From: Longimicrobiales bacterium
Lineage (GTDB): Bacteria > Gemmatimonadota > Gemmatimonadetes > Longimicrobiales > Gaopeijiaceae
Assembly: GCA_963664435.2 (NCBI GenBank)
Contig: CAXXKM010000001.1
Span: 1,440,001 to 1,504,000, forward strand
Length of the DNA: 64,000 nucleotides
Direction of reading: 5' to 3'
In this document: positions 1-30,259 of the stretch, piece after piece
Layout of the letters: every line of letters starts with the position of its first letter
How positions within the stretch are numbered: position 1 is the first letter of the stretch
Position numbers and translations under genes: made by a program
The notes under the pieces: model-generated
The model's input: only the letters and a program-made list of their open reading frames with translations
Database searches by the model: none
What the model was told of the DNA's origin: nothing

Positions 1-316
1 GCCGACGGCCCCTCATTCGAAGCAGTCGGTTGATGAGGTCGCTGGCCTCCCGTTTGCTACCGATCCCGGAGGGGTCGCCACCCAGAACCTTGATGTACCT
101 GAGTTGCCGTTCCGTGGCAGAGTGATGATCCCAGTTTCCTTGCGAGGGAACCGCATCAGGCACGGCAGGTCGATCCTCGGACGGGGAAACCGTGGCCATG
201 CTGTCTTCGAGCACCCTGTTATCCGCGCCCTCGTGGAGAGCTTCGTCGGGTGGCCCCCCATTTCTCCACAAGACTCGGCGGATGTTGGACATCGCTCGCT
301 TGGTTGCCTGCACCAT
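1..316 (-). CDS. Partial hypothetical protein (runs off the window edge) with an ATxxQLRYI...SKxEASxLIxxL helical motif; probable cargo of the element ending at 978
   Basis: Manual translation from ATG at 316, with AGGAAGG upstream: MVQATKRAMSNIRRVLW...SATERQLRYIKVLGGDPSGIGSKREASDLINRLLRMRGRR. No stop before base 1, so it is missing from the ORF track. Confidence 0.55.
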   Translation of the reverse strand, partial: MVQATKRAMSNIRRVLWRNGGPPDEALHEGADNRVLEDSMATVSPSEDRPAVPDAVPSQGNWDHHSATERQLRYIKVLGGDPSGIGSKREASDLINRLLRMRGRR

Positions 317-832
317 TATAGACACCTTCCTGTGACCGTATCCTGCGTGAATTATCTTGGTCGGGCAGTAATCATCTTGGGGGCCAAGGCGCGGTGTCAA
401 GCGAAATGCGGGAAGACGTCACCCCGAAAGCTGGCGCGAAAACGCGCTCGCGCGGCCAGCCTGCGGGCGTCTACGGCATCGGTCTCGTTGGGCTGGCCGT
501 CGCGGCGCCGGGAGGAGATCGCCGGAAGGATGGACGGGGCCGCCTTGCGGCAGGAAGAGAGCGGGGGAGTTCGGAAGTCCCTCGTCATGCCACAAAGCGA
601 CTAGTCGGTAAGTTGGTCAGCGTCCGAGGAAGTACTTGGAGGCCGTACGGCCGGTGGACGGCCGACAAGCTGCTCCCGCTGCGGGACGCACTCCAGCCGT
701 TTCTGGACCAACTGACGCGGGTCGAGCGCCCCGCGCCCGACAACGTGGCAGGTGCCGATTGACCCGTTCCAAGCACTTGCCGGGAGTTGAGTCAAGAGGA
801 CGATATGAGTGAGGCCAAGTCCCACGAGAATA

Positions 833-978
833 CCCGCCAAGCGATACCGTTTCCCCGGCTATCGTGACGCGGTGCAGTCAGATGCCGGCCAACAGCGAGA
901 ATGGCAGATCGTGCAGTCCCAATTGACTTTAGACGATTTCTCGCCGTGATTTACGCCGCCAGCGATCCGCCGTTACGT
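833..978 (+). mobile_element. Right end (attR-like) of a second tyrosine-recombinase element extending left of the window
   Basis: Aligns without gaps to 30770-30915 (offset 29937; about 102/146 identical by hand count). Shared blocks: CCCGCCAA, GCAGATCGTGCAG, TGACTTTA, GCCGTGAT, TCCGCCGTTACGT. Confidence 0.75.
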
Positions 979-1045
979 CAGGCTCATTGAGCGACCTTGG
1001 ATCTCGCGTCGTCGCCGTCCAGCAATGGCAGGCCTGCACCCCCCC

Positions 1046-3562
1046 CTACCCCAACTCCTCCAGCACCCGCTCCGGCCGTAACGGCAGCCTCCGCATCCGC
1101 ACCCCCGTCGCATCGAAAACCGCGTTCGCAATAGCAGCCGGCACCGGCCGATGCGACGGTTCCCCAGCCCCATAAGGCCGCAGATCCGGGCGGTCGGGGT
1201 TCGGGTCGCCGTTCACCATCACGACGTCGATGCGCTCGGGCGCGTCCATGTGCGTGAGGGTCGGGTGGGTGCGCCAGTCCACGCTGGTGACCTTCTCGCT
1301 ATCGAAGCGGACTTCCTCGTAGAGCGTCCGGCTGATCCCGTGCAGGAGGTTGCCCTGGATGGTGCTCTCGAGGCTGTTCGGATTGATCACCAGGCCGCAG
1401 TCGTGGGCGCACACCATCCGCCGGACCCACACCCGCCCGGTCTCACGGTCGACCTCGACTTCGGCGATCACGGCGATCGTCGTGCGGGCGCGATAAGCGT
1501 ACGCGATACCCCGCCCCGTCAGCACGCGCCCGCTCCCCACCGTCCCGGGTGACGGGCGCGCGTCCCACCCGTACGCCTCCGCCGCGGCCTCGACCACGGC
1601 GATCGAGCGCGCACGGCGGAAGGCCTCGTCGTCGTCGGTCGCCCCGCGCAGCAGACGCAACCGGAACTCGACCGGATCGGCGTTCGCGGCCGCGGCCAGC
1701 TCGTCGATGAACGACTCGCCGGCGAAGGTCGTCTGCGGGCCGTTGGGGTCGCGCAGGTTGCCGGTCCGGAGCGGCGTCTCGAAGGCCAGCGGGAAGCGGA
1801 CCGCCCGCGTTTCCTGGCGCCGATTCGGGATGTAATACATCTCGTCGGGGCCGCGCGCGCCGCCCGGGGACGGCCGCTCGGGCCGGAAGCCCATCAGCTG
1901 CGCGATCAGCACGGTGCGGGCCTGGTTGTATCCCACGTGGGCGTAGTTGGCGATCCGGCCCTGATAGTCCAGCGCGACCACGTTCCCATCTGGATCCAGC
2001 CCTCCTCGCAGGTCGATCGCGAACGCCGGGCCCTTGGTGTCCCAGGCCGTCTCATCGTGTCGCATCCACTGCACCCGCACCGGACGGCCCAGCTCCCTGG
2101 CCAGGTACGCGGCCTCGAAACCCGCGTCGTCCGCCGCCGTGCGCCCGTAGAGCTGCGGCCCTTCCATCCAGATCACCCGCACCTGCTCCGGATCCATCCC
2201 CAGGAACTCGGCGATCCCGGTCCGGTGGCTGTAGGGCTTCATGTCGTTGGTGTAGATGGTCATCTGGCCGTCCGAGGGGTCGGCCAGGGCGTGGGCGGGA
2301 CCGATGGCTGTGTGCCCATGGAAGGGGATGTCATACGCAGCTTCGACGACGGTCGCGGCGTTCGCGAGCGCCCCGTCGGGATCCCCCTGCGTCTGCGCCG
2401 CCCCGCGTCCTCCCGAGCCCGGCACTCGCTCCGCGCTCCGCATGTAGTCGAAGAGGTCGTCGGATGCCGGGAAGGGCGCCGAGGCCGGCTTCTCCCACTC
2501 GACCACCAGGCGTTCGGCGGCCTCGATCGCATGCTCCTCGCGCTCGCACACCACAGCGACATAGTTGCCCTCGCTGACCACCCGGATGAGGCCGGGCACG
2601 TCGCGCACCGACGACTCGTCGATGCCCACCAGCGTCGCTCCCGCGAAGGGCGGGCGCACATGCCGCGCGTGCACCATCCCCGGGACCCTCACGTCGACGG
2701 CCCACTCGAGCGTCGCATCGACCTTGCCCGGGATGTCGTAGCGCGGGATCGACTGGCCGACCAGCTTCAGGTCCTGCACGGGCTTGATGCTCGCGACACC
2801 GGTGGTCGCGTTGATGTTGCCTCCGGTCAGCGCGACATCGAAGCGCCGTCCACCGATCAGTTCGCCGTAACTCACGGTCCGCGAGGCATCGTCGCGCAGC
2901 GAGATCACACCCTCGCTCACGCCGAGCGCCTCCACGGGGACGCCCAAGCGCTCCGACGCCATCTCCAGGAGCACGCGCCGGGCCTCCGCCGCGATCCGGC
3001 GACCCACCATGGCGTCGCGCTCGATCGCATCCGAGCCACCCGAGCCACCCTGGTCCACGGTCATGTCTGTGCGGCCCATGACCACCGTCGCCTGGTCGAA
3101 GGCGATGTCGAGCTCGTCGCACATCATCTGCTGCGTGGCGGTGCCGGTCCCCTGTCCGCCATCGGTCTTGCCCACGTAGAAGGTCGCGGTGCCGTCCTCG
3201 TGCACGACCAGCCACGAGTCGAGCGCGAGGAAGTCGGGATCGGGATAGGACGCGGGCTCGGACGATTCATCCCCGGAGGGCTCGGCCCCAAAGCCCCATC
3301 GGCCCGCCCCGGCCACTCCCACGCCGCTCAGGCCGAAGACGAACAGCCCGGACGTTTTGAGGAAGTCCCGCCGGGACGTGGTGCCGCCCCAGCGGGCTAC
3401 TGCCTCGTCGAACAAGGGAGAAGACTGACGGTCGCCATTCACTGGTGTCCGTCTCATTCGCTCATCATGCCGCCCGGCGCGCGGCCCACGCTGCGCGCGG
3501 CCATCGGGTTCGCCATCCGACGGCATCCGTCCGTTTCGCTCATCACGCCGCCCGGCGCTCAT
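1046..3562 (-). CDS. Molybdopterin-dependent oxidoreductase large subunit (xanthine dehydrogenase family, IorB-like) with Tat signal
   Basis: SRRDFLK twin-arginine motif; GKTDGGQG, QGGSGGS, LRDPNGPQTTFAGESFIDELA, HDCGLVINP, GAGEP motifs. Start placed at the ATGA overlap with the upstream 2Fe-2S gene; the true start may lie further downstream. Confidence 0.9.
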   Translation of the reverse strand: MSAGRRDERNGRMPSDGEPDGRAQRGPRAGRHDERMRRTPVNGDRQSSPLFDEAVARWGGTTSRRDFLKTSGLFVFGLSGVGVAGAGRWGFGAEPSGDESSEPASYPDPDFLALDSWLVVHEDGTATFYVGKTDGGQGTGTATQQMMCDELDIAFDQATVVMGRTDMTVDQGGSGGSDAIERDAMVGRRIAAEARRVLLEMASERLGVPVEALGVSEGVISLRDDASRTVSYGELIGGRRFDVALTGGNINATTGVASIKPVQDLKLVGQSIPRYDIPGKVDATLEWAVDVRVPGMVHARHVRPPFAGATLVGIDESSVRDVPGLIRVVSEGNYVAVVCEREEHAIEAAERLVVEWEKPASAPFPASDDLFDYMRSAERVPGSGGRGAAQTQGDPDGALANAATVVEAAYDIPFHGHTAIGPAHALADPSDGQMTIYTNDMKPYSHRTGIAEFLGMDPEQVRVIWMEGPQLYGRTAADDAGFEAAYLARELGRPVRVQWMRHDETAWDTKGPAFAIDLRGGLDPDGNVVALDYQGRIANYAHVGYNQARTVLIAQLMGFRPERPSPGGARGPDEMYYIPNRRQETRAVRFPLAFETPLRTGNLRDPNGPQTTFAGESFIDELAAAANADPVEFRLRLLRGATDDDEAFRRARSIAVVEAAAEAYGWDARPSPGTVGSGRVLTGRGIAYAYRARTTIAVIAEVEVDRETGRVWVRRMVCAHDCGLVINPNSLESTIQGNLLHGISRTLYEEVRFDSEKVTSVDWRTHPTLTHMDAPERIDVVMVNGDPNPDRPDLRPYGAGEPSHRPVPAAIANAVFDATGVRMRRLPLRPERVLEELG

Positions 3563-4038
3563 CGGTCCACCTCCCCTTCGGCCATCGCTTCGGCCGCGCG
3601 CTTCACCGCCGACTGGATCCGGTAGTAGGTCATGCAGCGGCAGAGGACCCGGTTCATGCCCTCCCGGATTTCGTCGTCGCTCGGGCTGGGGCTGTAGCTC
3701 AGCAGCGCCGCGGCGGTGAGGATCTGCCCGTTCTGGCAGTACCCGCACTGCGGCACCTGCTCGTCGATCCATGCCTGCTGCACCGGATGCAGCTCCCCGT
3801 TCTCGGGCAGCCCCTCCAGCGTCGTGATCTCTCCCGTCGAGCGCGAAACCGGCCGGTTGCACGAACGGATCGCGCGTCCGTCCATGAGCACCGTGCACGT
3901 CCCGCACTGGGCCAGCCCGCAGCCGAAGCGCGGTCCGCGCAGCCCGAGATCGTTGCGCAGCACATACAGCAACGGTGTCGACGGATCGACATCGAGCGTA
4001 TGCGTCTCGCCGTTTACCCTGAGCGTGATCTCGCTCAT
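3559..4038 (-). CDS. (2Fe-2S)-binding small subunit of the molybdo-oxidoreductase (IorA/CoxS family)
   Basis: FGCGLAQCGTCTV, QCGYCQNG and LCRC motifs; start MSEITLRVNG. Confidence 0.93.
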   Translation of the reverse strand: MSEITLRVNGETHTLDVDPSTPLLYVLRNDLGLRGPRFGCGLAQCGTCTVLMDGRAIRSCNRPVSRSTGEITTLEGLPENGELHPVQQAWIDEQVPQCGYCQNGQILTAAALLSYSPSPSDDEIREGMNRVLCRCMTYYRIQSAVKRAAEAMAEGEVDR

Positions 4039-4302
4039 CGATGCATCCCCCTTCACCTCGTTGCAGCCGCGCAACGCGCGCGTAGAGTGGAAATTGCCCT
4101 GGTGGCGCGATCACCGCCACCTGCGAATCCGCGACCCGGCCATTCGTCCCATTCCGCCATTCTTCCGCCCGCCGGAATCAAGAGATTGGAGAAAGCCCAA
4201 GCGCCGATCCCACTTGGGCGCTTAACTGCATCCATCTCGGGGCTTGGGTGGATGTCGGGGGTAACAGACTCACAATGTTGCTGCGGAGGATGGTGCCGGT
4301 AC

Positions 4303-4803
4303 ATGTTTGATGCCATGGATACGACCGGACTTGATACGCTCAAGGCGACGAGAACACTCGAGGCGGCAGGCTTCGAGACATCCCAGGCCGAGGCCCTTGT
4401 GTCGGTGTTCGGTGGACCGGTCGCCGGCAGTGCCGCCACGAAGAGCGATGTCCGGGACCTTCGATCTGAACTGAAGACGGAGATCAAGGATCTCCGGACG
4501 GAACTGAAGGCGGAGATCGGTCAGGTGCGAGATGAAGTGAAGGCGGAGATCGGTCAGCTGCGGGATGACGTGAAGGTAGACATCGGTCAGCTGCGGGATG
4601 ACGTGAAGGTAGACATCGGTCAGCTACGGGATGACGTGAAGGTAGAGTCGACCGAGCGCAGGGCAGATGTCACGAGGCTCAGCCGTGAGATTGCCGATGT
4701 GCGCGGGGACATCAAGAACCTGAAGGCGCAGACGTACCGTTTGCTGCTGGTGCAGGCAACTGTGATCGTTGGGCTAATCGTCGGGTTGCAGCGGCTGCTC
4801 TGA
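4303..4803 (+). CDS. DUF1640/CCDC90-like coiled-coil protein with C-terminal membrane anchor, copy 1
   Basis: DTLKATRTLEAAGFETSQAEAL head, ATKSD neck, 11-aa repeats (VKVDIGQLRDD), hydrophobic tail LLLVQATVIVGLIVGL. Confidence 0.8.
   Translation: MFDAMDTTGLDTLKATRTLEAAGFETSQAEALVSVFGGPVAGSAATKSDVRDLRSELKTEIKDLRTELKAEIGQVRDEVKAEIGQLRDDVKVDIGQLRDDVKVDIGQLRDDVKVESTERRADVTRLSREIADVRGDIKNLKAQTYRLLLVQATVIVGLIVGLQRLL
4504..4647 (+). repeat. 33-bp intragenic tandem repeat (~4 copies) encoding a hendecad coiled coil
   Basis: gtgaaggtagacatcggtcagctgcgggatgac at 4570-4602, a near-identical copy following, and degenerate copies upstream. Confidence 0.85.
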
Positions 4804-4849
4804 CGGCGCACATCCGCGAGCCCGGCTCGCGACCCGATCTGGAGGCAGC

Positions 4850-12062: not shown

Positions 12063-12311
12063 CTTCGTTCTATCGTCCTTGCATCGGTTCCTGGTGTCCT
12101 GGCCCTGCGGTCTCTTCCTTCCGGTGCTGCGGTCTTCTGTCCGGGTCCCGCAGCTTCCCTGTCGTCTGCCAGCCCTGGCCGACGTTTCTGCGCTGCCCGC
12201 AACCCTGACGTTACGTCATGCGGTATCAGGTTGGTATCTTCCTGTGAGCGTTAGAGTTATGGAATTGGAAGGCCGGGTTCCCGCTATTTGACTCCCGCCG
12301 AATTGCGAGCC

Positions 12312-13469
12312 TCAGCCGCGAGGTCTCGGGCGGGCTTCCAGTGCCTTCCGAAGCTGTCCTTCGTCGGCTCGCTGGTAACACTGAAGCACCGTCTTGGCGG
12401 TCTTCCAGCCTCCAAGGTCGCAGAGGACCTTGAGCGGCTGCTCCATGAGGTCGCTCGCGAACTTGCGTCTCAACGAGTGCCAGCCCCGCCCACGCTTGGG
12501 TTCGAGTCCCGCGAGCTTCTGGGCTCGGTTCCACCAGAAGCGCACCAGCGTCCGGCCCGCGCACCGCGACGGATCTCGTGGTGCGGGGAGCACCGGAGCA
12601 ACCTCGATCCCGGCGCTCCGCTCTCGCGCCTCCTCAAGGACGGCGACCGCCTCGGCCGTCATCGGAGTCCGGTGTTCGTAGCCGGTCTTCTCGTGTTCGG
12701 CCCTCCACCGGATGGCTCGGGCTTCAAGGTCGATATCCGGCCACCTGAGGTGGCGGATCGCGCCGATTCGGTGTCCGGTCTCGTGCGCGAGCACCAGCGC
12801 GACGTGGAAGCGCCAATCGACCTCCCGGGACACCCCGAGAAGCGCCTGGTACTCCTCCTCGGACAACACGACCCGGGTCGGGTTCTTCTCCGTGGGCGTC
12901 TTCAGACCCTTCAGCGGGTTCGAGCCGAGGAGCAGCCGGCCATCCTCGTCCTTCGACTTGGCGGCCCAGTTGAACACGGCGATCAGGAACTTCAGGTCGT
13001 GTTCGATCGTCGCGTCGGACACCGGTTTGCCGCTCGCTCCGACCTTGCCCGCGCGCCGCGCCCGGATGAACCGGTCCCAGTCGCGCCGGGAGAGCGTTGA
13101 AGGCTTGCGGCCTCGTCCGAAGAACCCGAGGAACATCCTCGTCGCGGCCCGGTCGGCCCGCTGGGACGCCTCCGCCTTGGTGGGCGTCACCTCTTCACCG
13201 TAGATTTCAAACAGCTTGTCCAGCGTGAGCGGTTCGGGCTCGGCCTCCGTTTTGCCGTCGGGCGCGTCGATGAAGCCTGCGGCGAATTCGTCCGCCTGCC
13301 TCTTCGCGCGTCTCCATTCGCGATGTTGGAGCGACCGGCTCAGCCTGCGCCCGTTCTCGCGCCACTCGATCTGGAACATGCCGGTCTTCGGATCCGGAAA
13401 CACCCGGACCCGGTTCCGGCCCCATTCACCGGCGCCGTAGCTCCGGCGCTTTCGTTTCGTGCGTGCCAT
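12312..13469 (-). CDS. Tyrosine recombinase / site-specific integrase
   Basis: Full catalytic set: ETGHR (R), EHEKT (K), WHSLRR (HxxR), LGGW (W), QCYQ (Y); basic N-terminal arm-binding-like domain. Start at 13469 or 13472. Confidence 0.92.
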   Translation of the reverse strand: MARTKRKRRSYGAGEWGRNRVRVFPDPKTGMFQIEWRENGRRLSRSLQHREWRRAKRQADEFAAGFIDAPDGKTEAEPEPLTLDKLFEIYGEEVTPTKAEASQRADRAATRMFLGFFGRGRKPSTLSRRDWDRFIRARRAGKVGASGKPVSDATIEHDLKFLIAVFNWAAKSKDEDGRLLLGSNPLKGLKTPTEKNPTRVVLSEEEYQALLGVSREVDWRFHVALVLAHETGHRIGAIRHLRWPDIDLEARAIRWRAEHEKTGYEHRTPMTAEAVAVLEEARERSAGIEVAPVLPAPRDPSRCAGRTLVRFWWNRAQKLAGLEPKRGRGWHSLRRKFASDLMEQPLKVLCDLGGWKTAKTVLQCYQRADEGQLRKALEARPRPRG

Positions 13470-13489
13470 CATTCGATTCCTCGCGTGAT

Positions 13490-13505
13490 GGACTGCACGA
13501 TCTGC
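13490..13505 (-). promoter_or_regulatory. GCAGATCGTGCAGTCC box upstream of the integrase start, shared with the element right ends
   Basis: 16/16 identical to 904-919; GCGCAGATCGTGCAG is 15/15 identical to 30839-30853. Confidence 0.6.
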
Positions 13506-13546
13506 GCGAAGGAAACTTCGCACACGGCAGGCTTCTTGACCAGCGT

Positions 13547-15087
13547 AGTCTTGTCCAACGGCAAATGAGCCTGAACGCGGGGCCGGTTTCCAGCGGGAAG
13601 TGAGCCTGAAGGCCGGGGCGAAGAGATCATTGGAGGATGATCGTGACACTTCGCACCGAACGAATCCGGACGCTCGACCAGATGCGCGCCTTCGTGGAGG
13701 GCAGCGAACCTGCGGACTTCCAGATCACCGACCGCACTTCCGCCTACGTCTTCGTCCGCCGCACGCTGGTCCGCTTCGAGTACCACGGCCTCGGGAAGCC
13801 CGACAAGGGGCTGGTGAAGCGGTTCCTTGAGAAGGTGACGGGCATTTCACGCGCCCAGATCACCCGCCTGATCCGACAGCACCGCCGGACGGGCCACATC
13901 CGCGACCACCGCAACAAGCCCCCGGCCAACGCCTTCCGGCGGCGCTACACGCCCCACGACGCCGCTCTGCTCGCCGAGGTCGACGAAGCCTTCGGCCAGC
14001 CATCCGGACCCGCCACCAAGGTGGTCCTGCAACGCATGCACGAGGTCTACGGCGACGGACGCTTCGCACGCCTCGCCTCGATCTCCAACGGCCACATCTA
14101 CAACCTCCGCAAGACCCGCGCGTACCGGACCGGCCGCCTCACCTTCCGTAAGACCCGGTCCACTCCCGTCGCCATCGGGGTCCGCCGCAAGCCGCGGCCG
14201 GATGGCAAGCCCGGCCATCTCCGCGTCGACACCGTCCACCTCGGCGACCGCGACGACCGGAAGGGCATCTATCTCATCAACGTCGTCGACGAAGTCACGC
14301 AGTTCCAACACCTTGGAGCCGTGCCGCGCATCACCCAGCACTTCCTCGTCCCACGCCTCGAAGCCCTGCTGGCCGCCTTTCCCTTCACCATCCACGCCTT
14401 CCATGCCGACAACGGCAGCGAGTACGTCAACGGCCGGGTGGCCGCGCTGCCCAACAAGCTCCACGTCGGCGTCTTCACCAAGTCCCGGCCCCGCCACCCC
14501 AACGACAACGCGCTGGTCGAGACCAAGAACGGAGTCGTCGTCCGCAAGTGGCTCGGCCACATCCACGTCCCCCACGCCCTCGTCCCCCGGGTCAACGCCT
14601 TCCTCCACGACCACCTCTGCCCCTTCCTCAACTTCCACCGGCCCTGCCTCTTCCCCACCGAAGTCACCAGCCCCACCGGCCGAGTCAAGCGGCGCTACCG
14701 GCAACAGGACGTGACCACCCCCTACGAGCGCTTCAAGGCTCTGCCCGGCGCTGAAGCCTTCCTCCGGCCCGGCGTCACCCTCGGTGCCCTCGACCAACTC
14801 GCCGCCGCAACCACCGACCTCGACGCCGCCCAAGCCGTCCAGCGCGCCCGCGACGAACTCTTCCGCGCCATCGGCCAAGCCCGCAACTCCGCCGCGTGAT
14901 CCGACTCGCGTCAGCCGCTGGCTTGCCGGAGACCCTCCTGCCTCTCGGGCGTCCCACGGCCCGCCGGTTGCCTCTCTCCCCCGTTCAAGGAGATAATGAT
15001 ACACCCTCAACTGCCACCTGCCCCGGCCTCGGGCCTCACCCCTCGCACCTTCCCCGGTTCAGGCTCATCTCCGTATTGGAAAAGACT
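13547..15087 (+). mobile_element. 1541-bp insertion sequence with imperfect 29/30-bp IRs and 4-bp GCGT target duplication
   Basis: IRL AGTCTTGTCCAACGGCAAATGAGCCTGAA (13547-13575); IRR reverse complement AGTCTTTTCCAATACGGAGATGAGCCTGAA (15058-15087); GCGT at 13543-13546 and 15088-15091; extra subterminal copy at 13587-13610. Confidence 0.88.
13637..14899 (+). CDS. DDE transposase with integrase core (rve-like) domain
   Basis: LRVDTVH (D), FHADNGSEY (D), NDNALVETKN (E); N-terminal HTH-like segment; GGAGG RBS. Confidence 0.92.
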   Translation: MIVTLRTERIRTLDQMRAFVEGSEPADFQITDRTSAYVFVRRTLVRFEYHGLGKPDKGLVKRFLEKVTGISRAQITRLIRQHRRTGHIRDHRNKPPANAFRRRYTPHDAALLAEVDEAFGQPSGPATKVVLQRMHEVYGDGRFARLASISNGHIYNLRKTRAYRTGRLTFRKTRSTPVAIGVRRKPRPDGKPGHLRVDTVHLGDRDDRKGIYLINVVDEVTQFQHLGAVPRITQHFLVPRLEALLAAFPFTIHAFHADNGSEYVNGRVAALPNKLHVGVFTKSRPRHPNDNALVETKNGVVVRKWLGHIHVPHALVPRVNAFLHDHLCPFLNFHRPCLFPTEVTSPTGRVKRRYRQQDVTTPYERFKALPGAEAFLRPGVTLGALDQLAAATTDLDAAQAVQRARDELFRAIGQARNSAA

Positions 15088-15838
15088 GCGTAAGGACATG
15101 CTCTCCCAAGCCGATCCGAAGGGCGGATTCCGTGCGGTTCGGGGCCGTAGCGCGAGTGTCCGTTCGACATCGGGGGCGACCGGACACGAAATCGTGTTTC
15201 CGACGGACAAGCCGCTGGTCCGCCATGTCGTTGGACGGCTTGCAGTTGCGCCTCGCCCAGACGAGCGGCCGTGACACGCGGGCGCTGGCGGGCGTGGCCG
15301 GAGCGACCCCCCGATTTCGATGGCTGGCGTGCCATCGAGGAGTTCGGCATCGGACACGCCCATGCCGTCCTCCGTGGGAGGTCGCTCCGGTCCAGCGATC
15401 CCTGCGGGAAGGCCAAACGGCGAGCCGGGGCGGTGCGTCCCGGTTTTAGCCAGCGCTACCGGACAGCCGACCGGCCGGCCGGTCGGCCAACGGGTCCTCC
15501 TCCGTCTCGAAGTGGCGCTCACATCGCCTTCCCGCGCAGGGATCGCTGGTCTGGGAGCGACCCGAGGGGGCGGGGGCGGGGTGCGCAAACGCGCACGACC
15601 CCGAACCCGCAGCAGTCACTCGGACTGCCGGGTCGCTCCCAGCCCCGTCCGAACGAGCCCTGCGGCCCCGGCCGTCCGGGACAACGAGGCGCAAGACCTT
15701 TGCGCGCTACGGCTTCCGCCGCCCCGCCGGTGCGCACGTCCGGAGCGCCGGGGTGCGCATCGGCACCCTATGTCGTTTTCGCGGTCCGGTACGGCTCTAT
15801 GTCGTGCGCCGCGCCGTCCACCGAGGCTGGCGGATGAA

Positions 15839-16486
15839 TCAGCTTTGCGCCGCCTTCATGATCTCGGCCACATAGTCATCCAGACGGGCCATGACCCCGA
15901 TGGTTTCCGCCTGACTCTCCGCGTTCGCGATTTCCTTGGCCAGATCCAGCAGCAGACGGCGGACTGCGGCTGGGTCGCCCGTCCCCGTCGACGGCGCATC
16001 GGCTCCAGCGGTCTCCTCAGCCGGTGGTGCATCCGGTTCCGGCGGTGCCTCCGGATCAGCCGCTGCGTCCCTTGCGAGCCGCGCCTTCACTTGGAGGGGG
16101 TATTTCGCATGGAACTGCCGGGCCGAGAGGTCCGCGACGGAGGGGTCGATCTCGCGGGCACCCGCGAACAGGTCCGCGTTCGAGATGCCGGGGTCCGCTT
16201 CGAGCGTCCGCGCCACGAACTCCATGACGGCGGCTCCGTCGCCGGATGGTGCGGGCACGGCGGCGGGCGCCGGGTCCGCCTTCGGTTGCCGTGCGGGCTG
16301 TGGCGGCGGCGCTATCCTCCGGGTCGCGGGCAGCCGATACTTGGCGTGAAACTGTTGCAGCGTAAGCTCCCCGACCGACTCGTCGATCTCCAGGGCACCG
16401 GCGAACAAGGTCTTGTTCTTCGCGCCGGGGTCCTTCTTCAGTTCGTCTACCATGTACTCCATGACGGCATCATGCGAGCTGCCCAT
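15839..16486 (-). CDS. Hypothetical protein with two copies of a ~55-aa helical domain plus a C-terminal helical domain; putative DNA-binding protein
   Basis: AVMEY...DPG..N..LFAGALEIDESVGELTLQQFHAKY and AVMEF...DPG..N..LFAGAREIDPSVADLSARQFHAKY, separated by Pro/Ala linkers. Confidence 0.75.
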   Translation of the reverse strand: MGSSHDAVMEYMVDELKKDPGAKNKTLFAGALEIDESVGELTLQQFHAKYRLPATRRIAPPPQPARQPKADPAPAAVPAPSGDGAAVMEFVARTLEADPGISNADLFAGAREIDPSVADLSARQFHAKYPLQVKARLARDAAADPEAPPEPDAPPAEETAGADAPSTGTGDPAAVRRLLLDLAKEIANAESQAETIGVMARLDDYVAEIMKAAQS

Positions 16487-16985
16487 GTCGTTACCCTTTC
16501 AGAGGCCAGGTGCGCGCCGGATGGACGCGGGCAAATCGGGAATTGCCCTGTCGGGAAAACTCGAAGAGTGTTCGGGGAGCGTCAATGTCGCCGGTTCGAC
16601 ATCGCCCCCGCCTTCGACCGCGTAGATCTCGCCCGCGTGCCGGGAGATTGCCGACCTCAGCCCGGAAGGGCGCCGCGTGCGTCCCGCCGCGTACCGGAAG
16701 CCCTAAGCGGCGCCTCGGGAGCGTTTCGCGGGCGTCCGAACGGGCTGGCTTTAGCCACGCTACCGTGGCTCAGCCAGCACACGCGATGTTGAACATTCGC
16801 GGTCTGGCCAGGGGGACGCTGCGTCCCCCCTTGAACCCCCGGCTTCCCGCGCCGCTGAGAGATCAGCGGACGGGCGCAGGAAGACGCCCTTGCCGGGTGG
16901 AGGGGAGAGCACGTAGGCTCGAACGGTGCAATTTCTGCGGCAATGAGTGCCGCCCCCTTTTGACTCGGAGAGAGAGATCGCGAGA

Positions 16986-18998
16986 ATGACCGAACGACCG
17001 GATGTCCCCGGAGCGCTGAACTTTCCCGCTCTCCGCGAAGACTTCGTTCCGCTTCCAGCGAGTGAGCCCGATGGTTTCCGGCACGTGCTCTTCGTTGGCA
17101 CGACCGGTGCTGGGAAGACGACCCTTGTCCGGCAGCTTATTGGCACCCATCCCGCCACGGAACGCTTTCCGTCAACCTCGACTGCGAAGTGCACCATACA
17201 CGATACGGAGATCATCCTAGGCCAGGCCCCGTGGCGGGCGGTTGTCACGTTTGTTTCGAGTGACCAAGCCCGTGGGCATCTGAACGAATGTATCTCTGCG
17301 GCACTCCTCGCGGTTATTCGAGGGGAAGACGATGCGACCGTGCTCCCGCGTCTGCTGGACCATGTCGAACAGCGGTTTCGCTTCAGCTACGTGCTCGGAC
17401 GAGGGCCGACCACGACGCAGCGGTCCGGGTTGTTTGGTGATGAAGACGAGGGGCGCGATGGGGGAATTGGCGAGCTTGGGGGCGAGGCGGTGGGTATCGA
17501 CTTGACCGCTACGAACGAGCTGCTCACGCGCTCCCTGACAAGACTCCGCAGCCTAGCGGGGCAGCTGCGAGAGCGAGTCCGCGCCACACTGCTGTTGAGC
17601 GAAGACGATCAATCGGAGGAGAACGAAGACGTTATCCAGGAGTTGTTGGAAGAGGAACACGAGGCCGAGCTGAAGGACACAGATGTCCGCGAGATTGCTG
17701 ATCCCTTGATGGACGAAATCGAAAAGCGCTTCGGTCTGCTCCCGGCGAGTTCCTTAACGAGAACGCCGCAAGGTTGGCCTCTGACGTGGTGCGGAAGCTG
17801 GCCCGCGGAGGAGCGCGGCGAGTTTCTCGGGTCGGTCTCGCGGTTTTCGAGTAACTACCGGCCCCTGTGGGGTCAACTCCTGACGCCCCTGGTAAGTGGG
17901 ATTCGTGTCGCCGGCCCGTTTGCTCCTAGGTGGAAGAGCGGACGGGCTCCCAAGCTCGTATTGTTCGATGGTCAAGGCTTAGGACACACCCCGAAATCGT
18001 CGTCTTCGGTGTCCACAGCATTGAGTCGACTCATCGATGCGACAGACGCGGTGGTTCTCGTGGACAACGCCGCACAGCCTATGCAGGCTGCGGCACTCGC
18101 AATCATGGACGAGCTTGCGAGCACCGGCAACGGACGCAAGCTGATCTTGGCCTTTACCCACCTCGATCAAGTCCAGGGTGACAGCCTTCCAACCACCAGC
18201 GACAAAGCTAGGCACGTGTTGGAATCGGCAGAGAACGCGATCTCCGCCCTCCGCGATCCCTACGCCCAGCGCGTTCTTCGAGAGCGACTGCATGCAGCCA
18301 GCTTCTTCTTGGCGGACCTTCAAGAGCAGCTTCCAGAACACACTACTTCCGGTCGCCGCACTATCAAGCAACTCGTGGGCCTACTGGATGCCGTCGACCA
18401 AGTAATCGAAAGGCCGCAGCCCACGGAAGCGTCTCCGATCTACGACCGACTCACTCTCGTCGCTTCGATTCTTCGCGCGCTGGAAGCCTTTCACGAGGAG
18501 TGGCGACCCACGCTCGGTCTTGGCCCCCGGCGGAGCGAGAAGAGACATTGGGCAACGATCAAGGCACTGAGTCGGCGCCTCGCCGAAATGGGAGAGGACG
18601 AGTACGGTGGTCTACGACCAGTTGCGGACCTGCGGAAGAAGCTGGTGGTCCGAATCAACCGTTTCATCCGCAAGCCCTCACGATGGGAGGGTCCCGAGGC
18701 CACTGAGGAGGAGAAAACGGAGAAGTACGCTTCTCTCGCCAGTAGCTTGGGTCGGCGGCTAACCGATCTATCGGACCGTCGTGTCTGGTCGGAGCAAATG
18801 CACCTCTGGAAGCGCGCATTCTCGCGACGCGGGCGAGGGTCGACCTTTGTTCGAGCCGAGATTATCGGCAATGACATCTACGAACGCGCGGCACCAGTCG
18901 CGGACGACACACCCTCGTCGGTCCGCAACCGGTGTCTGCGAGACGTAGTTGACGAATTCGAAGCTGCTGCGGACGAAGTTGGAGCGCAGATCATATGA
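16986..18998 (+). CDS. Large P-loop GTPase with dynamin-like motif arrangement
   Basis: G1 GTTGAGKT, G2-like STAKCT, G3 LFDGQG after a long helical insert, G4-like FTHLD; visibly lower GC than the flanks. Confidence 0.75.
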   Translation: MTERPDVPGALNFPALREDFVPLPASEPDGFRHVLFVGTTGAGKTTLVRQLIGTHPATERFPSTSTAKCTIHDTEIILGQAPWRAVVTFVSSDQARGHLNECISAALLAVIRGEDDATVLPRLLDHVEQRFRFSYVLGRGPTTTQRSGLFGDEDEGRDGGIGELGGEAVGIDLTATNELLTRSLTRLRSLAGQLRERVRATLLLSEDDQSEENEDVIQELLEEEHEAELKDTDVREIADPLMDEIEKRFGLLPASSLTRTPQGWPLTWCGSWPAEERGEFLGSVSRFSSNYRPLWGQLLTPLVSGIRVAGPFAPRWKSGRAPKLVLFDGQGLGHTPKSSSSVSTALSRLIDATDAVVLVDNAAQPMQAAALAIMDELASTGNGRKLILAFTHLDQVQGDSLPTTSDKARHVLESAENAISALRDPYAQRVLRERLHAASFFLADLQEQLPEHTTSGRRTIKQLVGLLDAVDQVIERPQPTEASPIYDRLTLVASILRALEAFHEEWRPTLGLGPRRSEKRHWATIKALSRRLAEMGEDEYGGLRPVADLRKKLVVRINRFIRKPSRWEGPEATEEEKTEKYASLASSLGRRLTDLSDRRVWSEQMHLWKRAFSRRGRGSTFVRAEIIGNDIYERAAPVADDTPSSVRNRCLRDVVDEFEAAADEVGAQII

Positions 18999-19134
18999 AC
19001 GGCACGGAGGGCGATGCGGTGCCGGGGGAATAGCGGCTTGGCTCGCCACTGGCGGATCGTCCACTGGTTCGGGTGGCAGGCAGGGGCTATCTACCGCTCT
19101 AACTCCGCAGGACTTCGTGTCGTTCAGGGATCGA

Positions 19135-19212
19135 AGGGGCGGAGCCCCTCGCCAGCCCCGTTGTATGACAAGGGGTAGGCTGGCTTGTCTACCTTAGCGA
19201 TGTCCGACAAGC
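19135..19212. other. Cluster of inverted repeats; candidate oriT-like site
   Basis: AGGGGC-gga-GCCCCT (19135-19149), GCCAGCC...TTGT-atg-ACAA...GGCTGGC (19151-19184), GGCTTGTC...GACAAGCC (19182-19212). Confidence 0.4.
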
Positions 19213-19675
19213 CCCTCCGCCGCGGCCACGGACGTTCCGGTGCGGCCCGGCAAGTCGGCCCGTTTGACGTGCTCGCGCCCGCGCCCGATCCCCCAAACGC
19301 CGGGCTCTGGTTTCACCCGGCGACCGAGCCCCGCGCGCCGACGGCGCATCGCGCCGTCTCGTGGTAGCCGTCCGGGAAGCCCGCCCTCTGCGGCCCAAGG
19401 CGACCACGCCGCCCGGCAAGCTAGCGCTGGCGATCCGCCCGGCGCGCCGGGCGGTCCGGCAGAATCCCGCGTGCTACCTGGCCGCGCCCGCACAGGGAAT
19501 GGCTCCCTTCGATGGCAACGCATGGTGGCGCCTGATACGTGACTACTCGCGTTCGGTTGATACCGCCGCTTGCCCGCAGCGGTGCCCCATCCTCGGAAAC
19601 GGGCGAAGGGGCCGACCCATACGAACCCTCCTCGCCTCGGTCGCGGGTGGAAGAAAGATCCCGGGGTCAGGCGTG

Positions 19676-20026
19676 TCACGAGGTTCCCTCGCACCGCACG
19701 GAGCGCTCCACCGCGCTGAAGAGCCGGATGTTGCCCTGCCCCCCGCCCTCGACGCTGAAATCCCCGCCCGCACGGCACTGCGCCAGGGTTGCGCTGTCGA
19801 GATTGAGCTGCGCGCAGGCGGCGGCCAGCGCCTCTCCCAACGCCTCTTCGCGCGACGCGCCCGTGCCCGTGCCGCTTCCCGAGCCGGACGGCGAGGACAT
19901 CGAGCCGAAGGTCGAGGGCACGAGCGTCAGCGTCACGCTGCACATCCACGCCTCGCTCTCCATCATGCTTTCGCAGGCCACCACGGCACACAGTGCGAGC
20001 AGCGTGCTTCTCAGTCTGACCCACAT
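19676..20026 (-). CDS. Small lipoprotein of unknown function
   Basis: AGGAGGAG RBS; LALCAVVAC lipobox-like signal; four further Cys. Confidence 0.7.
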   Translation of the reverse strand: MWVRLRSTLLALCAVVACESMMESEAWMCSVTLTLVPSTFGSMSSPSGSGSGTGTGASREEALGEALAAACAQLNLDSATLAQCRAGGDFSVEGGGQGNIRLFSAVERSVRCEGTS

Positions 20027-20053
20027 GGATTCTCCTCCTTGTTTGGCGTTGCC

Positions 20054-21046
20054 TCAGCCAGCTCCGGGGTCGGCCGGCCTGAATCTCAACTCGAGAGCGC
20101 GAATGCCGCGGTCGAGCGTGGGACCCAACTCGAAAGCGCCCGCCGCGAGCATTTCGGCGGTCACCCGAAGCTGGTGCACGCCGTACACGTCGTCCTCGGT
20201 CATGTCCACGTCGACCACTCGGATGAGAAGAACGTCGTCGGGGTAGACCGTAAGCACGGGCGTCGAGCCGAAGTGCACGGTCTTCTCCTCGCTGTCGACG
20301 GTTGCCGTGTACCCGACAATGGCGTCCAAGAGGCTTCTTCGTTCGCCGCCAGCGGCGGAAACCCTCGCCTCCAGCGTGGCGACACTGTCGCGCAACTCCT
20401 CCAGCGCGGCCGACTCACCCGGAGTGAGCGCCGGTCCCGGCCGCAGTTCGCTCCTCTCCCTCTTCTCCGCAAGCGCCCGAAGCTCCCGGAACTCCTCTGC
20501 GCCCGCCTCCACGAGCGTCAGCTCCTCGAGCTCGGTCAGCCGCCTCCGCTCCGCCTCCGTGAGTTCCGGTCCGGGCACCACTTCCGAGAGCCTCCGCTTT
20601 TCCACCAGCGGGTCCATGGAGCGGGCGAATCCGGCGGACTCCTCCCGCCAGCGATCCATCCGGTCGCCGAGTTGGTGAATCCTGCGCAGGACGGGTGGAG
20701 CTCGGCGCTGTATCTCCACCCGGTAGTCCGGCCGCGAGAACGTGTCGCCCCCTCCGGCTCCGACGGTGACCCGGCCAACCGACACCGTGTACCCGCGCTC
20801 TTGGACGATCTCCCCGGCATCCGGCGCAACCGACGAGCTCGACCCCGGCCCCGTGGCCCTCGCGCTCGCCGACACGGCTTGGCCTGCGGCAGGCGTTCGG
20901 TCGAGCACGGGTCCGGTCCGCGCGTCGCCCCAGCCGATTCCCCAAGCGAACAGCGGGACCACGGCGAGCACGGGCAGCAGCCCCGGCCAACCCCCGGTTA
21001 CCGTTGGTGGTCCGTGTTCCAGGACTCGGTTGTGGGGCGAACTCAT
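20054..21046 (-). CDS. Membrane-anchored or exported hypothetical protein with C2-like motifs split by a coiled coil
   Basis: ATGA overlap with the upstream gene; hydrophobic N-terminal segment; DTFSRPDYRVEI, an E/R/L-rich helical insert, then LLIRVVDVDMTEDDVYG. Confidence 0.65.
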   Translation of the reverse strand: MSSPHNRVLEHGPPTVTGGWPGLLPVLAVVPLFAWGIGWGDARTGPVLDRTPAAGQAVSASARATGPGSSSSVAPDAGEIVQERGYTVSVGRVTVGAGGGDTFSRPDYRVEIQRRAPPVLRRIHQLGDRMDRWREESAGFARSMDPLVEKRRLSEVVPGPELTEAERRRLTELEELTLVEAGAEEFRELRALAEKRERSELRPGPALTPGESAALEELRDSVATLEARVSAAGGERRSLLDAIVGYTATVDSEEKTVHFGSTPVLTVYPDDVLLIRVVDVDMTEDDVYGVHQLRVTAEMLAAGAFELGPTLDRGIRALELRFRPADPGAG

Positions 21047-23760
21047 GACTTCGTCACTTCGTTTTCGCTCTTGTACTTGCCGCGGACGCCGGCGGCGGTG
21101 ATATCGCCCACCATGCGGTACTTGCCCGATGATGCGTTGTTCAGGTTGTAGCCGCACAGGCTATCCGTCTTCTTCGTGCCCGCGATGTCCTGCCAGCCGG
21201 ACCCTGAGTCTCGCTGCCACCATGTCTCGTGAAAGTCCCATCTCTTCCCGTTGAACGTGCCGTTGGCGGCCAGACAACCCGTATTGCCCGCGCCGAGGCT
21301 GATTCCCCCGACCTGCAACCGAACCCCGCCAGTGTTCGTGATCTTCAGTCCGGTGAGCGTCTTGAAGTCGCCGCCGGTGTCGCCCGCGACCGTGACGCTG
21401 AACGCCTGTTCGGCGGCGAGGCCGCCGGGGTCTCTGGCCGTCACGCGAATCGTCGCTTCGCCATCGGCCACCGCCTTGACGGTTACCGTGTCCCCCGAGA
21501 CGGATGCCGTCGCGACGCTCGCGCTCGAGGAACTGGCCGTGTAGGTGAGGGCGTCGCCGTCCGGGTCGCGGAAGTAGTCGGAGGCGTTCACCGTCGTGCT
21601 GTCGCCCGGCTTCAGCGTTTTCGCGGATATGGAGCCCACGGTCACGGGCGATTGGTTGCTGCTTCCGCCGCCCACGGTCACTTCATTCTCGCTCCTGTAC
21701 TTGCCGCGAACGCCGCCAACGGTGAACTCGCCAACAAACCGGTACACGCCGGCCTTCGCGCTTGCGAGACCGTATCCGCAAAGCTGCCCGTTCTTCCGGG
21801 TGCCGGAGACCTGAGCCCAGGCGGAACCGGCGACGTTGTCCCTTCTCTGCCATTCGGTCCAGTGAACCTCGTAACTCACGCCGTTGATGGTGACCCGACT
21901 GGTCCCAAAGCATCCGCTGTTCGTGAAGTTCCCCCACTTCAGAGCGCCCGCTTGCGTGATCGTCAGCCCGCTTATCGTCTTGTAGTCGCCCCCGGTGTCG
22001 CCCGCCACCGTGACGCGAAACGTCTGTTCCGCCATGAGGCCGCCGGGGTCGGTGGCGGTGACTCGGATGGTTGCAGTGCCTTCCGCCACGGCCGTGACCG
22101 TCCCGATGTCGCCGGACAGCCGCACCGTCGCCACGCTCGTGTTCGAGGACGTGGCGCTAAACGACAACGCGTCGCCGTCCGGGTCACTGAAGTAGTCCGA
22201 TGCGTCCCCCTCGATGCTATCCCCCACCGCGATCACCGTGTCGGGTATGGAACCCACCTTCACAGGGGACCGATTGTCCGAATCGCAGACCGGACCTCCG
22301 TTGTAGCTGTCCTCGTCGATCGCGGCAATCGAGGCGAGCCACGCTTGGAAGCCGATCTCGGCGGGCGAACACAGGTCGGTGCCATGCCAATAGAACGCGT
22401 CGAGTAGCAGGGCCTGCAAATCCAGCGGAAGCGGCCCCGCCAGACCCCCGTTGTTGCTGATCGCCAAGCTGTGCAGGTCGGTGTTCCCAAGTTCGGCGGG
22501 GACCGGCCCGCTCAGTTCGTTGTCGTGCAGCCACAGCACCCGCAGGTCCTCCCAGGCACCATACGACTCCGGCGTGGGAATGGGGCCTGTCAGCTGATTG
22601 TCGTAGAGCCACAACGCCTCGAGATTCCGGAGGCCGGCCAGCTCGGACGGGATCTCGCCGGTCAGCTTGTTCCTCGACAGGGACAGGTTCTCGATGTAGT
22701 AGAGGTTGCCAAGTTCTTTCGGAATCGGGCCAGTCAGTTCGTTCCCCCACAGACGCAGATCGACCAGGTAGTTTCGCAGAGAGCCCAGCTCCGCCGGAAT
22801 CCTGCCCGTGAGCCTGTTGCCGCCCAAATCGAGCCGATGGAGAGACCGCATGGAGCCGACCTCCTTGGGGATCTCGCCGGTCAGCCGGTTGCGCCACAAG
22901 TACAGTCGCTCGAGCCGCGTCAAAGCTCCCACCTCCGGCGGGATCTCACCGGTCAGCTGGTTGTCTTGGAGGTACAGTCGCTCGAGGTCGTTCATCGAGC
23001 CCACCTCCGGCGGGATCTCGCCGGTCAGCCGATTACGTCCAAGCGACAAAACTTCGACGTCGTCCAATGCGCCCAGCTCCGGGGGGAGCGATCCGTCCAG
23101 CCCGCGGTTGTGAAGGTAGAGCCTCTCCACCCCAAAGGTGCCGAGGACCACGCCGTCCCACTCCGTCATCACGGTTGCGGTGTCCCAGTTCAATGACACC
23201 GTGCCGCGCAGTTGGTCCATCGCGGCGAGCAGCGCGTCGCAATCGTCGTCGAAGAAGAGCCAACCGCGTTCGAAATCCAGGGCCGGCGAATCGCGGTGAC
23301 AGACCTCGGGAATGTCCAAGTCCAGACTCCGCGCGATGTTGCTCGCCGCGTTGCCGGCGTTGTCTAGCCTCGCGGGGCTGCGAGCAGGCTCGTCGGTGCG
23401 TGTGGAGTCCGGGACACCGGAGGCCGGCACCAGCCCGTCCAGTTCGTCGTCACGCTCGCCGGCCGAGGGATACCCCAACTCGCTCTCCCGCTCCAATCGA
23501 TCGAGTTCCGCCGGGCCTATCCCGTGAATAGCAAGGCTGGGATTGAGCGGCACGTCAACCGGCGTGTCGTCGAAGGCAGGCGACATCGGCTCGTCGACGC
23601 AGGCGGCCAAGGTCGCGATGACGGCCACAATCAGGGTTGCCCCCGGCGTGAAGAGCTTGGGGTTGCTGGCAAGCATTGAAGGTCTCCTCTTGGATGCGTC
23701 GCGAAGTGCGGTGCTCCGTGATCGAGTTGGTGTGCCGTGGGCTCGCCGGGGCATGGTCAT
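21043..23760 (-). CDS. Lipoprotein with plant-type 24-aa LRRs followed by two [cadherin/Ig-like + Cys-containing beta domain] modules
   Basis: IATLAAC lipobox; repeated LxxLxLxxNxLTGEIPxEVG; DYFSDPDGDAL and DYFRDPDGDAL Ig-like repeats; both modules end GVRGKYxSENEVT. ATGA overlap at 23757-23760. Confidence 0.88.
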   Translation of the reverse strand: MTMPRRAHGTPTRSRSTALRDASKRRPSMLASNPKLFTPGATLIVAVIATLAACVDEPMSPAFDDTPVDVPLNPSLAIHGIGPAELDRLERESELGYPSAGERDDELDGLVPASGVPDSTRTDEPARSPARLDNAGNAASNIARSLDLDIPEVCHRDSPALDFERGWLFFDDDCDALLAAMDQLRGTVSLNWDTATVMTEWDGVVLGTFGVERLYLHNRGLDGSLPPELGALDDVEVLSLGRNRLTGEIPPEVGSMNDLERLYLQDNQLTGEIPPEVGALTRLERLYLWRNRLTGEIPKEVGSMRSLHRLDLGGNRLTGRIPAELGSLRNYLVDLRLWGNELTGPIPKELGNLYYIENLSLSRNKLTGEIPSELAGLRNLEALWLYDNQLTGPIPTPESYGAWEDLRVLWLHDNELSGPVPAELGNTDLHSLAISNNGGLAGPLPLDLQALLLDAFYWHGTDLCSPAEIGFQAWLASIAAIDEDSYNGGPVCDSDNRSPVKVGSIPDTVIAVGDSIEGDASDYFSDPDGDALSFSATSSNTSVATVRLSGDIGTVTAVAEGTATIRVTATDPGGLMAEQTFRVTVAGDTGGDYKTISGLTITQAGALKWGNFTNSGCFGTSRVTINGVSYEVHWTEWQRRDNVAGSAWAQVSGTRKNGQLCGYGLASAKAGVYRFVGEFTVGGVRGKYRSENEVTVGGGSSNQSPVTVGSISAKTLKPGDSTTVNASDYFRDPDGDALTYTASSSSASVATASVSGDTVTVKAVADGEATIRVTARDPGGLAAEQAFSVTVAGDTGGDFKTLTGLKITNTGGVRLQVGGISLGAGNTGCLAANGTFNGKRWDFHETWWQRDSGSGWQDIAGTKKTDSLCGYNLNNASSGKYRMVGDITAAGVRGKYKSENEVTKS

Positions 23761-28004: not shown

Positions 28005-28017
28005 GTCGTCCGGTCCT

Positions 28018-29934: not shown

Positions 29935-29983
29935 TGCCCGCTACCCGCCTTGGCGGCGGCTCCCCAACCCTAACCGATCAATG

Positions 29984-30259
29984 CTACTGAATTGCGGCGA
30001 ATGTGCGCGACAGCGGTGCTGACGTGGCCCGCGAGAGCCGCAAGGAAGAAAAGGAGGGGGTCGGTGGGTGGACAGAGAAAGCGCCGATGCGCGGGAAATC
30101 GCCGAGTTTATAGCCGGCTCGGCTCGGCTCGGCTCGGCTCGGCTCGGCTCGGCTCGGCTCGGCTCGGCTCGGCTCGGCTCGGCTCGGCTCGGCTCGGCTC
30201 GGCTCGGCTCGGCTCGGCTCGGCTCGGCTTCTTAACGATGCCCCGTAATCAATACTCAT
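29984..30259 (-). other. Putative leader ORF containing the pentanucleotide tract (SRAEP repeats)
   Basis: ATGs at 30259, 30277 and 30307 read in frame through (GAGCC)n to TAG at 29984; translation is unproven. Confidence 0.4.
30116..30229. repeat. Perfect pentanucleotide simple sequence repeat, (GGCTC)22 + GGCT
   Basis: Counted directly; about 180 bp upstream of the surface-protein operon. Confidence 0.97.

Follow-up and report, generated by a model that had tools for sequence, protein, structure and literature searches.

The element family described here belongs to a known general class, that of tyrosine-integrase ICEs, IMEs and their decayed remnants, in which circle-dependent control of integrase is known at promoter level. 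In phage lambda, sib mediates retroregulation of integrase, and Tn916-like conjugative transposons carry non-identical coupling sequences at their ends and enter AT-rich, unspecific targets. Reports on other systems describe a promoter switch that couples circle state to integrase output in ICEKp1 (PMC13023037), control of intS by TorI and IntS in KplE1 (PMC2951348), a HE-PICI integrase clade that targets prophage late genes (PMC10111431), streptococcal ICEs and IMEs whose tyrosine integrases, when more than 40% identical, mostly share one target gene (PMC5357655), and intergenic attB sites as generally common (PMC12884075). It is also reported that MerR regulators bind dyads in 19-bp promoter spacers (PMC9909328) and that AlbA, a TipA-like regulator, selects ACNCTNACG in such spacers (bioRxiv 10.64898/2026.09.21.753095). 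In a literature search that covered mostly openly accessible main texts, we found nothing on the present family, on a MerR operator or dyad serving as attB, or on attR-borne activation of integrase translation.

A short conserved segment of a Longimicrobiales chromosome is very probably the end of such an element in decay. We analysed a window of 64,000 nt (G000:C1:1440001-1504000) from a 4.5-Mb genome of 68% GC. Its positions 833-978 are best explained as the attR arm left by a decayed family member, from the integrase clade that uses the target ACCCTGA-CGTWACG-TCAGGGT. The initial annotation had aligned this segment to 30770-30915, and its count stands: 102/146 positions are identical without gaps, where every other ungapped placement, with both strands of the window tried, gives at most 64 (mean 38.9, sd 5.3). 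Its further readings were also accurate. Both copies end in the core CGTTACGT, the flanks are ACGTCAGG (975-982) and ACGTGAGG (30912-30919), the left half-site is CCTGACGT (12204-12211), and the minus-strand stop codons, placed 50-70 nt away, lie 68 nt (molybdopterin oxidoreductase) and 52 nt (creatininase) past the cores. What the two junctions of a paired element have in common is the 7-mer CGTTACG, at 971-977, 12209-12215 and 30908-30914, and not an 8-mer. The features of the relic and its intact sister are as follows.

1..830, no strand: end of the relic cargo
831..842, plus: arm repeat 1 of attR, TTCCCGCCA-like, a candidate integrase arm-type site
851..862, plus: arm repeat 2 of attR, degenerate in the 833-978 copy
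892..901, minus: 3' arm of a 10-bp inverted repeat, predicted minus-strand stem
904..919, minus: near-invariant 16-mer, whose minus strand is the exact complement of the integrase leader sequence
920..937, plus: AT-rich block TTA-N3-GAT, common to left and right ends, a candidate host-factor site
938..947, minus: 5' arm of the inverted repeat, also similar to the arm-type site
964..970, plus: element-side core site, ATCCGC type, from the element-side core sites of 26 pairs
971..977, plus: 7-bp overlap CGTTACG, the putative strand-exchange segment; identical 7-mer at both junctions in 26/26 pairs
978..985, plus: host half of the target palindrome, TCAGGCTC
1046..4120, minus: large subunit of a molybdopterin oxidoreductase of the host; 68 nt separate its stop codon and the overlap
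12201..12305, plus: attL of the intact 18.7-kb sister element, with host half AACCCTGA, overlap 12209-12215 and two arm repeats at 12277-12305
12312..13472, minus: sister-element tyrosine integrase, 386 aa, with R235, H332, R335 and Y366 present (Pfam Phage_integrase)
13452..13505, minus: integrase leader, with the 16-mer at 13490-13505 and a predicted hairpin over the ribosome-binding site and start codon
30768..30922, plus: attR of the intact sister element, overlap 30908-30914

The relic is minor by itself; its value is the family that it exposes. Iterated profiles recovered 47 right ends and 30 left ends across the genome, and tblastn gave 28 long integrase matches with 68-97% identity to the window's integrase, which bears out the multi-copy family proposed at the outset. 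Among the left ends, 26/30 pair with a right end, with orientation, nesting and the 7-mer at fixed offsets all in agreement; because a 7-mer match was itself a pairing criterion, the 26/26 agreement of overlaps is partly circular, and non-cognate left/right combinations share the 7-mer in 16/650 cases. Same-contig pairs span 4-50 kb, and 4/26 pairs span two contigs. The arm-repeat-1 motif, TCCCGC, stands at offset -72/-71 from the 16-mer in 59/75 right ends and is present twice in left ends, and a CCCGC[T/C/A]-type motif occupies offset -49 in 46/75 right ends. The AT-rich block presumably bears a weak likeness to an IHF site. A chromosomal right-left junction at C3:696-957 has the predicted attP form, 3 nt short.

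The family is, as judged from its ends and genes, of the lambda type (arm and core sites, 7-bp overlap), with a tyrosine integrase, and comprises conjugative, mobilisable and cargo-only elements of Ca. Palauibacter-like sponge bacteria. The integrase is a three-domain tyrosine recombinase, and in the sister element as in the family the R-H-R-Y catalytic residues lie beside an att site. Its fold is closest to lambda Int, XerA and Tn1549 Int at 15-23% identity; against the PDB, single-sequence search gave no match and profile search 12 distant ones, and plasmid and phage collections gave none. Like lambda Int and mv4 Int, it has an N-terminal three-stranded arm domain, a core domain and a catalytic domain. 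The family also shares with them (bioRxiv 10.1101/2023.11.06.565760) an identical 7-bp overlap flanked by degenerate 7-bp core sites. It differs from them in its 15-23% identity, in a clade whose target is a regulator dyad and not a tRNA end, and in an integrase that points to attL. One member encodes VirB4-like, VirB6, VirB8, VirB9, VirB10 and VirB11 proteins and a coupling protein, another MobC and a relaxase, and a relaxase cluster occurs in 10/26 elements; no conjugation or mobilisation module appears among the Pfam hits of the window's sister element.

At E 1e-40 the integrase is found in 17/18 same-genus genomes and 4/42 others. Its named relatives lie mostly in Longimicrobiales/Gemmatimonadota assemblies, one labelled Ca. 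Palauibacter irciniicola, and the remainder in a few Gammaproteobacteria and Acidobacteria bins; a sponge metagenome run contains nearly the whole stretch. Across 19 genomes we counted 371 right-end and 275 leader matches, but the two are about equal in G005 and G017, and we claim no general excess of orphan right ends.

Target choice varies widely within the family and follows integrase clade. The 26 paired elements use 20 different 7-bp overlaps. Some lie in tRNA-Val (in both directions) or tRNA-Pro, others inside the integrase genes and leaders of sister elements or in a second palindrome, and six pairs, with the orphan 833-978, use the palindrome ACCCTGA-CGTWACG-TCAGGGT. A target consensus shared by the whole family, as first proposed, is thus not supported, and the palindrome is specific to one clade. 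Palindrome-type left ends form one integrase clade (57/58 rows, SH-like 98, FastTree) in a tree whose loci were found via peptide patterns of the window's integrase and in which the window's clade is over-sampled. That clade has its own residues at integrase positions 100, 101, 109, 305, 306 and 358, and 1500/1559 integrase pairs at least 80% identical share a target class, a count that one clade dominates. A Tn916-like low specificity with tolerance of heterology was considered and rejected: overlaps are identical in 26/26 pairs with no mismatched pair, and target tracks clade. As in streptococcal ICEs and IMEs (PMC5357655), conjugative and mobilisable elements share integrase families, att sites accrete in tandem, remnants decay and elements insert into other elements. 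Unlike in those systems, integrases that share 68-97% identity with the window's account for 26 elements with 20 overlaps, and dozens of intergenic dyads serve a single clade. HE-PICI likewise reportedly have an integrase clade specialised on other mobile elements, and some present members sit in sister integrase genes or leaders; in contrast to HE-PICI, no phage helper was seen, and the target of the 833-978 clade is a host dyad. Closely related integrases that reach at least 20 targets within a single genome, and that vary mainly in a few segments, offer a natural panel for specificity change in tyrosine recombinases.

Several arrangements of these elements merit record. Elements inserted in a sister integrase gene, near the end of the arm-binding domain, lie at C2:112648-129356 and at C1:1571081 with C2:1091525, and the element at C2:832108-839160 is inserted in a sister integrase leader right after the 16-mer. 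Three nested elements occupy C1:1569994-1574083 and C2:1086086-1099980 with ends pairing across contigs, which suggests that C1 and C2 are joined at their ends; a further cross-contig pair suggests that C3 and C1 are joined at their starts. A single tRNA-Val gene (C3:1152266-1152340) is flanked by two elements that use its anticodon-loop 7-mer in opposite directions, and elsewhere 17 tRNA genes are arrayed within 2.8 kb (C2:689401-692178). At L196:10376-10665 (G005), two right ends stand head to head, which fits backward integration into another element's attR. The second palindromic target, TCTGCC-ATTTT-GGCAGA, occurs at C2:410281, C2:426710, C2:987011, C3:705189 and C3:713737, in tandem REP-like doublets. 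In the window's sister element, an rve-domain transposase gene (13637-14899) lies directly upstream of the integrase leader, where other members have an excisionase-like ORF; the cargo at 21043-29934 includes three large leucine-rich-repeat and Ig-domain genes, and a CGGCT pentanucleotide tandem repeat of more than 20 units stands near the right end (30113-30230).

The most invariant block of the right end may act as RNA. The initial annotation had read the conserved blocks as protein-binding sites, which probably holds for the arm repeats; the 16-mer at 904-919 is the part that may work otherwise. It has 69 copies in the genome at one mismatch or fewer, 42 in right ends and 27 in integrase leaders. 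A metagenome search with a pattern that left the 16-mer free gave at most two mismatches in 39/62 usable matches and 9-15 in the other 23, a count that covers 80 of the 114 loci. In the leader, 16-mer positions 6-16 and the next three bases are predicted to pair with the start codon and codons 2-4, and the predicted structure thereby hides the initiation region, as an antisense switch would have it. The hairpin has a mean z of -3.64 over 91 leaders (95% below -2); the window's own reaches -2.94, with 0/200 shuffles equally stable. Codon 2 is GCA in 89/91 leaders, leader pair 20/-2 covaries between A-U (49) and G-C (18) as the one such pair, and wobble changes occur at three pairs.

On the integrase strand, attR carries the exact complement of the 16-mer within its 10-bp inverted repeat. 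Pairing holds in 96.1% of the repeat's cells, and double changes number 17, where shuffles give 6.7 +/- 1.9, in an alignment of which 39/41 rows came from a pattern fixing five stem pairs. For the 833-978 copy, the fold z is -2.05 on the minus strand versus -1.26 on the plus strand. Mutual information over 45 right ends left the stem pairs outside the top 40, and alignment folding of 75 right ends gave weak local structure with no long stem. Tree-aware ranks of the five variable stem pairs are 2, 5, 7, 12 and 19 of about 91. On all of this, the attR stem is moderately supported.

Our leading candidate for the role of the 16-mer, held short of even confidence, is circle-dependent activation of integrase translation. 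While the element is integrated, the integrase start codon would be locked in the leader hairpin; transcript models of this state pair it in 21/22 cases. Excision would place attR behind the integrase gene, and since attR is then joined there, the circle transcript would carry a 16-nt perfect complement. Its modelled position is about 160-190 nt past the stop codon of the integrase, and the stretch that separates them has no terminator match. Read-through across attP would supply the complement and open the hairpin, and integrase would then be made without excisionase, just when integration is needed. The isolated 16-mer is predicted to displace the hairpin favourably in 91/91 leaders (net -13.9 kcal/mol); when whole circle transcripts are folded, the long-range duplex forms in 11/22 and the start codon is fully freed in 4/22. 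As the 16-mer is common to all members, any transcribed right end could act in trans on sister integrases; orphans such as 833-978, at 68 nt behind a host gene, could do so if transcribed.

A quite possible alternative, to which we give somewhat less weight, makes the 16-mer a site on DNA, recognised by an excisionase-like protein or by the integrase, that serves excision in attR and autoregulation before int; the few members that retain the protein's gene would provide it in trans, and the inverted repeat would act as two arm-type sites. In 4/27 leaders there is an intact HTH-type ORF with a stop that overlaps the start of the integrase (its atlas lead is HTH_17, at 13% of one cluster, with no Pfam hit), GCAG repeats with a 9-nt period run within the 16-mer, the inverted-repeat arms resemble the arm motif, and the spacing from 16-mer to core, fixed at 67 nt, fits a nucleoprotein complex. 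TorI and IntS control intS likewise in KplE1 (PMC2951348). A DNA site leaves unexplained the leader fold over the start codon with its fixed GCA codon 2, and also the tolerated changes, which differ between the two settings: T14C occurs in 20/75 right ends versus 0/97 leaders (with a few T14C leaders in another set), and A12G in 27/97 leaders versus 3/75 right ends. It equally fails to account for the repeat's substitutions, in which minus-strand G.U states arose 77 times versus 13 for the opposite mismatches. GC-biased substitution and shared ancestry could inflate these 16-mer and stem asymmetries, and the single position T14C dominates them; in two elements both 16-mer copies carry the same A-to-G change. 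Roles that involve neither RNA pairing nor a DNA site seem rather unlikely.

Activation of the integrase by an attR RNA key would be a retro-activation, the mirror image of lambda sib. As in ICEKp1, KplE1 and lambda sib, joining of ends in the circle would alter integrase output, and int leaders bear stem-loops. Unlike those systems, which act through transcription, mRNA decay or DNA-bound proteins, the present proposal has an attR-derived segment pair with the int leader. If true, such pairing would be a new means of sensing the circular state. That retro-activation combines with a MerR-dyad landing pad into an undescribed logic is a claim we advance with under-even, tentative confidence; if true, it would give integrative elements a control and a targeting logic not described before, with the dyad as a multi-copy landing pad and rearrangement point.

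The clade's target looks operator-like, a putative TipA-type operator in addition to being attB. The best conserved dyad stands within TTGACC-19 bp-TACCTT, 13 nt upstream of a MerR_1 + TipAS gene (C2:315770), so that at this and the orthologous loci it occupies the 19-bp -35/-10 spacer ahead of such a gene. Its half-site fits the AlbA SELEX motif ACNCTNACG. In the genus, 11/15 TipA-type promoters hold an element end; six of these filled promoters have a replacement -35 half and five are without a -35. The integrase would read the operator arms as core sites and exchange strands in the central 7 bp; since this 7-mer is symmetric apart from its middle base, both orientations would be reachable, and the replacement -35 half in some elements would rebuild the promoter. 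Like published TipA, Mta and AlbA operators, the dyad lies upstream of the gene for the regulator itself, where it overlies the 3' end of the -35 in a 19-bp spacer; unlike them, it doubles as attB and has many copies without a -35 hexamer. Use of a transcription-factor dyad as attB links mobile DNA to an antibiotic-sensing regulator.

Copies of the dyad are dispersed through the genome, as had been claimed: the window's genome holds nine empty and seven filled, the latter counted as right ends, and 58 left ends have 47 distinct host flanks. The dispersed copies are operator-like only, because most lack a -35 hexamer; neither the left junction in the window nor the empty sites next to the oxidoreductase gene have a TTGAC-type hexamer. 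Near-exact dyads number 1-19 per genome in 16/18 same-genus genomes, zero in G006 and G008, and one among 42 other genomes. Since the TipA-type gene, the clade and the palindrome are all missing from G006 and G008, these data do not separate spread driven by the regulator from spread driven by the element. An empty dyad at C3:1530205 lies between two genes, one divergent, and is a candidate true member of a TipA-type regulon; its neighbour we take, from its translation, to be a MATE-like efflux gene. At C2:285145-285856, an original tipA-type -35 half is followed by a decayed left junction and then by a second left end, an instance of tandem accretion.

It is possible, if unlikely, that the palindromes represent REP-like hairpins, terminator hairpins or scars left by elements, with the TipA-operator likeness secondary. 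The first description had placed the targets downstream of genes, which is true of 5/9 empty palindromes and 3/7 filled right ends but not of the best conserved target, a TipA-type gene promoter. Of the empty sites, 5/9 have a stop codon no more than 120 nt away, versus 24/600 random positions, a control unmatched for intergenic position. Further points that favour hairpins or scars are that multiple copies occur only where the clade is present, that arm-less dyads mark synteny breaks (reciprocal junctions in G016 fit a 68-kb inversion), and that one dispersed dyad, which fills between atpG and atpD a length equal to that of unrelated sequence in other genomes, decays in several genomes. Against such origins, the dyad holds the canonical MerR position, with the same promoter geometry, before the orthologue in five outgroup loci without the clade (four without G056), the outgroup genomes having one dyad site each in 4/5 and none in 1/5. 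The host-side flanks of 158 half-sites, moreover, show no positional signal of right-arm remnants, and the palindromes were rejected as scars bearing them. Dyad copies mark rearrangements and cargo in sponge symbionts, such as leucine-rich-repeat and Ig-domain genes.

The 833-978 copy itself is a relic end. The initial annotation held that a sister element ends here, and the end is real; the paralogous integrase and left end sought to the left of the window are both missing. Profiles, patterns and tblastn found no left end, half-site or family integrase from C1:1358786 to 833-978, and the sole find within the 100 kb searched upstream is a complete element at C1:1349-1359 kb. As these 82 kb hold neither left end nor integrase, 833-978 is a relic and not an active element. 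Relic cargo extends about 5.8 kb upstream of the arm (C1:1435064-1440830, 59-62% GC) with a type II-like DNA methyltransferase and unnamed ORFs; beyond C1:1435064 lies ordinary chromosome common to relatives. Unbroken contigs cross the C1:1435064 junction in 3/4 runs (X1, X5, X6) and the right end in 3/4 (X1, X5, X7), X1 being possibly the source sample; in X7 one contig stops at the left junction of the 12204-30915 element with 15 unlike letters, too few for use.

Relatives suggest how the locus arose. An empty palindrome lies 20-55 nt from the end of the oxidoreductase-gene homology in 5/15 of them, and none of the 15 has an element end at this site. In G002 and G004 the DNA matches G000 up to C1:1435064 and then runs through about 0.9 kb absent from G000 to the empty palindrome. 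The 68-nt spacer between core and gene at 833-978 is not homologous to the relatives' spacer, and the empty site therefore agrees by position only. The end of the oxidoreductase gene is a hotspot whose neighbours differ in most of the 15 relatives. An element would have integrated beside the gene, and a later deletion of attL and the integrase, together with about 0.9 kb of flanking host DNA, would have fixed some 5.8 kb of cargo; integration followed by deletion would be the simplest history of the locus. Sequence comparison establishes how both ends are built and how they pair, that this copy has lost its left end and integrase, and that the target is specific to the clade.

It is very improbable that 833-978 instead closes an intact large element whose left end lies far upstream or on another contig. 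Four pairs do span contigs, and palindrome rearrangements of the G016 kind exist, but all six left ends with a CGTTACG-type overlap have a nearer consistent partner and the sequence above C1:1435064 is chromosome held in common with relatives. Least probable is an independent small RNA, riboswitch or promoter with no integrase connection, for which 19/45 motif-bearing right ends without a partner (833-978 among them) and the supported minus-strand hairpin could speak. Against it, 26 right ends pair with a left end next to a complete or fragmentary integrase gene. Motif and integrase leader co-occur in 17/18 relatives and are jointly missing, along with any family integrase match, in G008, the right end has no Rfam covariance-model match above chance, and no sigma-70 promoter or terminator match falls in 700-1150 or, with zero sites, in scans of both ends. 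Pairing largely refutes that independence, and an RNA role for 833-978 has a place only as part of an element. A peptide-coding right end was also rejected, since 45 copies share no conserved open frame.

Beside the relic, window positions 4140-4840 hold about 700 bp with a short coiled-coil-like ORF, and the same junction has an empty palindrome in G002 and G017 and a right end in G016. A dispersed repeat with a CGCGA-TGTT/CGTT-GAACA-TCGCG-like hairpin occurs at window 16770-16854, C1:1435315-1435451, C2:309871, C2:840953 and C3:429998, and one family right end adjoins a repeat of this kind. A BCCT transporter gene stands at a conserved chromosomal place and has an 88% identical copy within an element (C3:1115-2709, C1:1421931-1423525).
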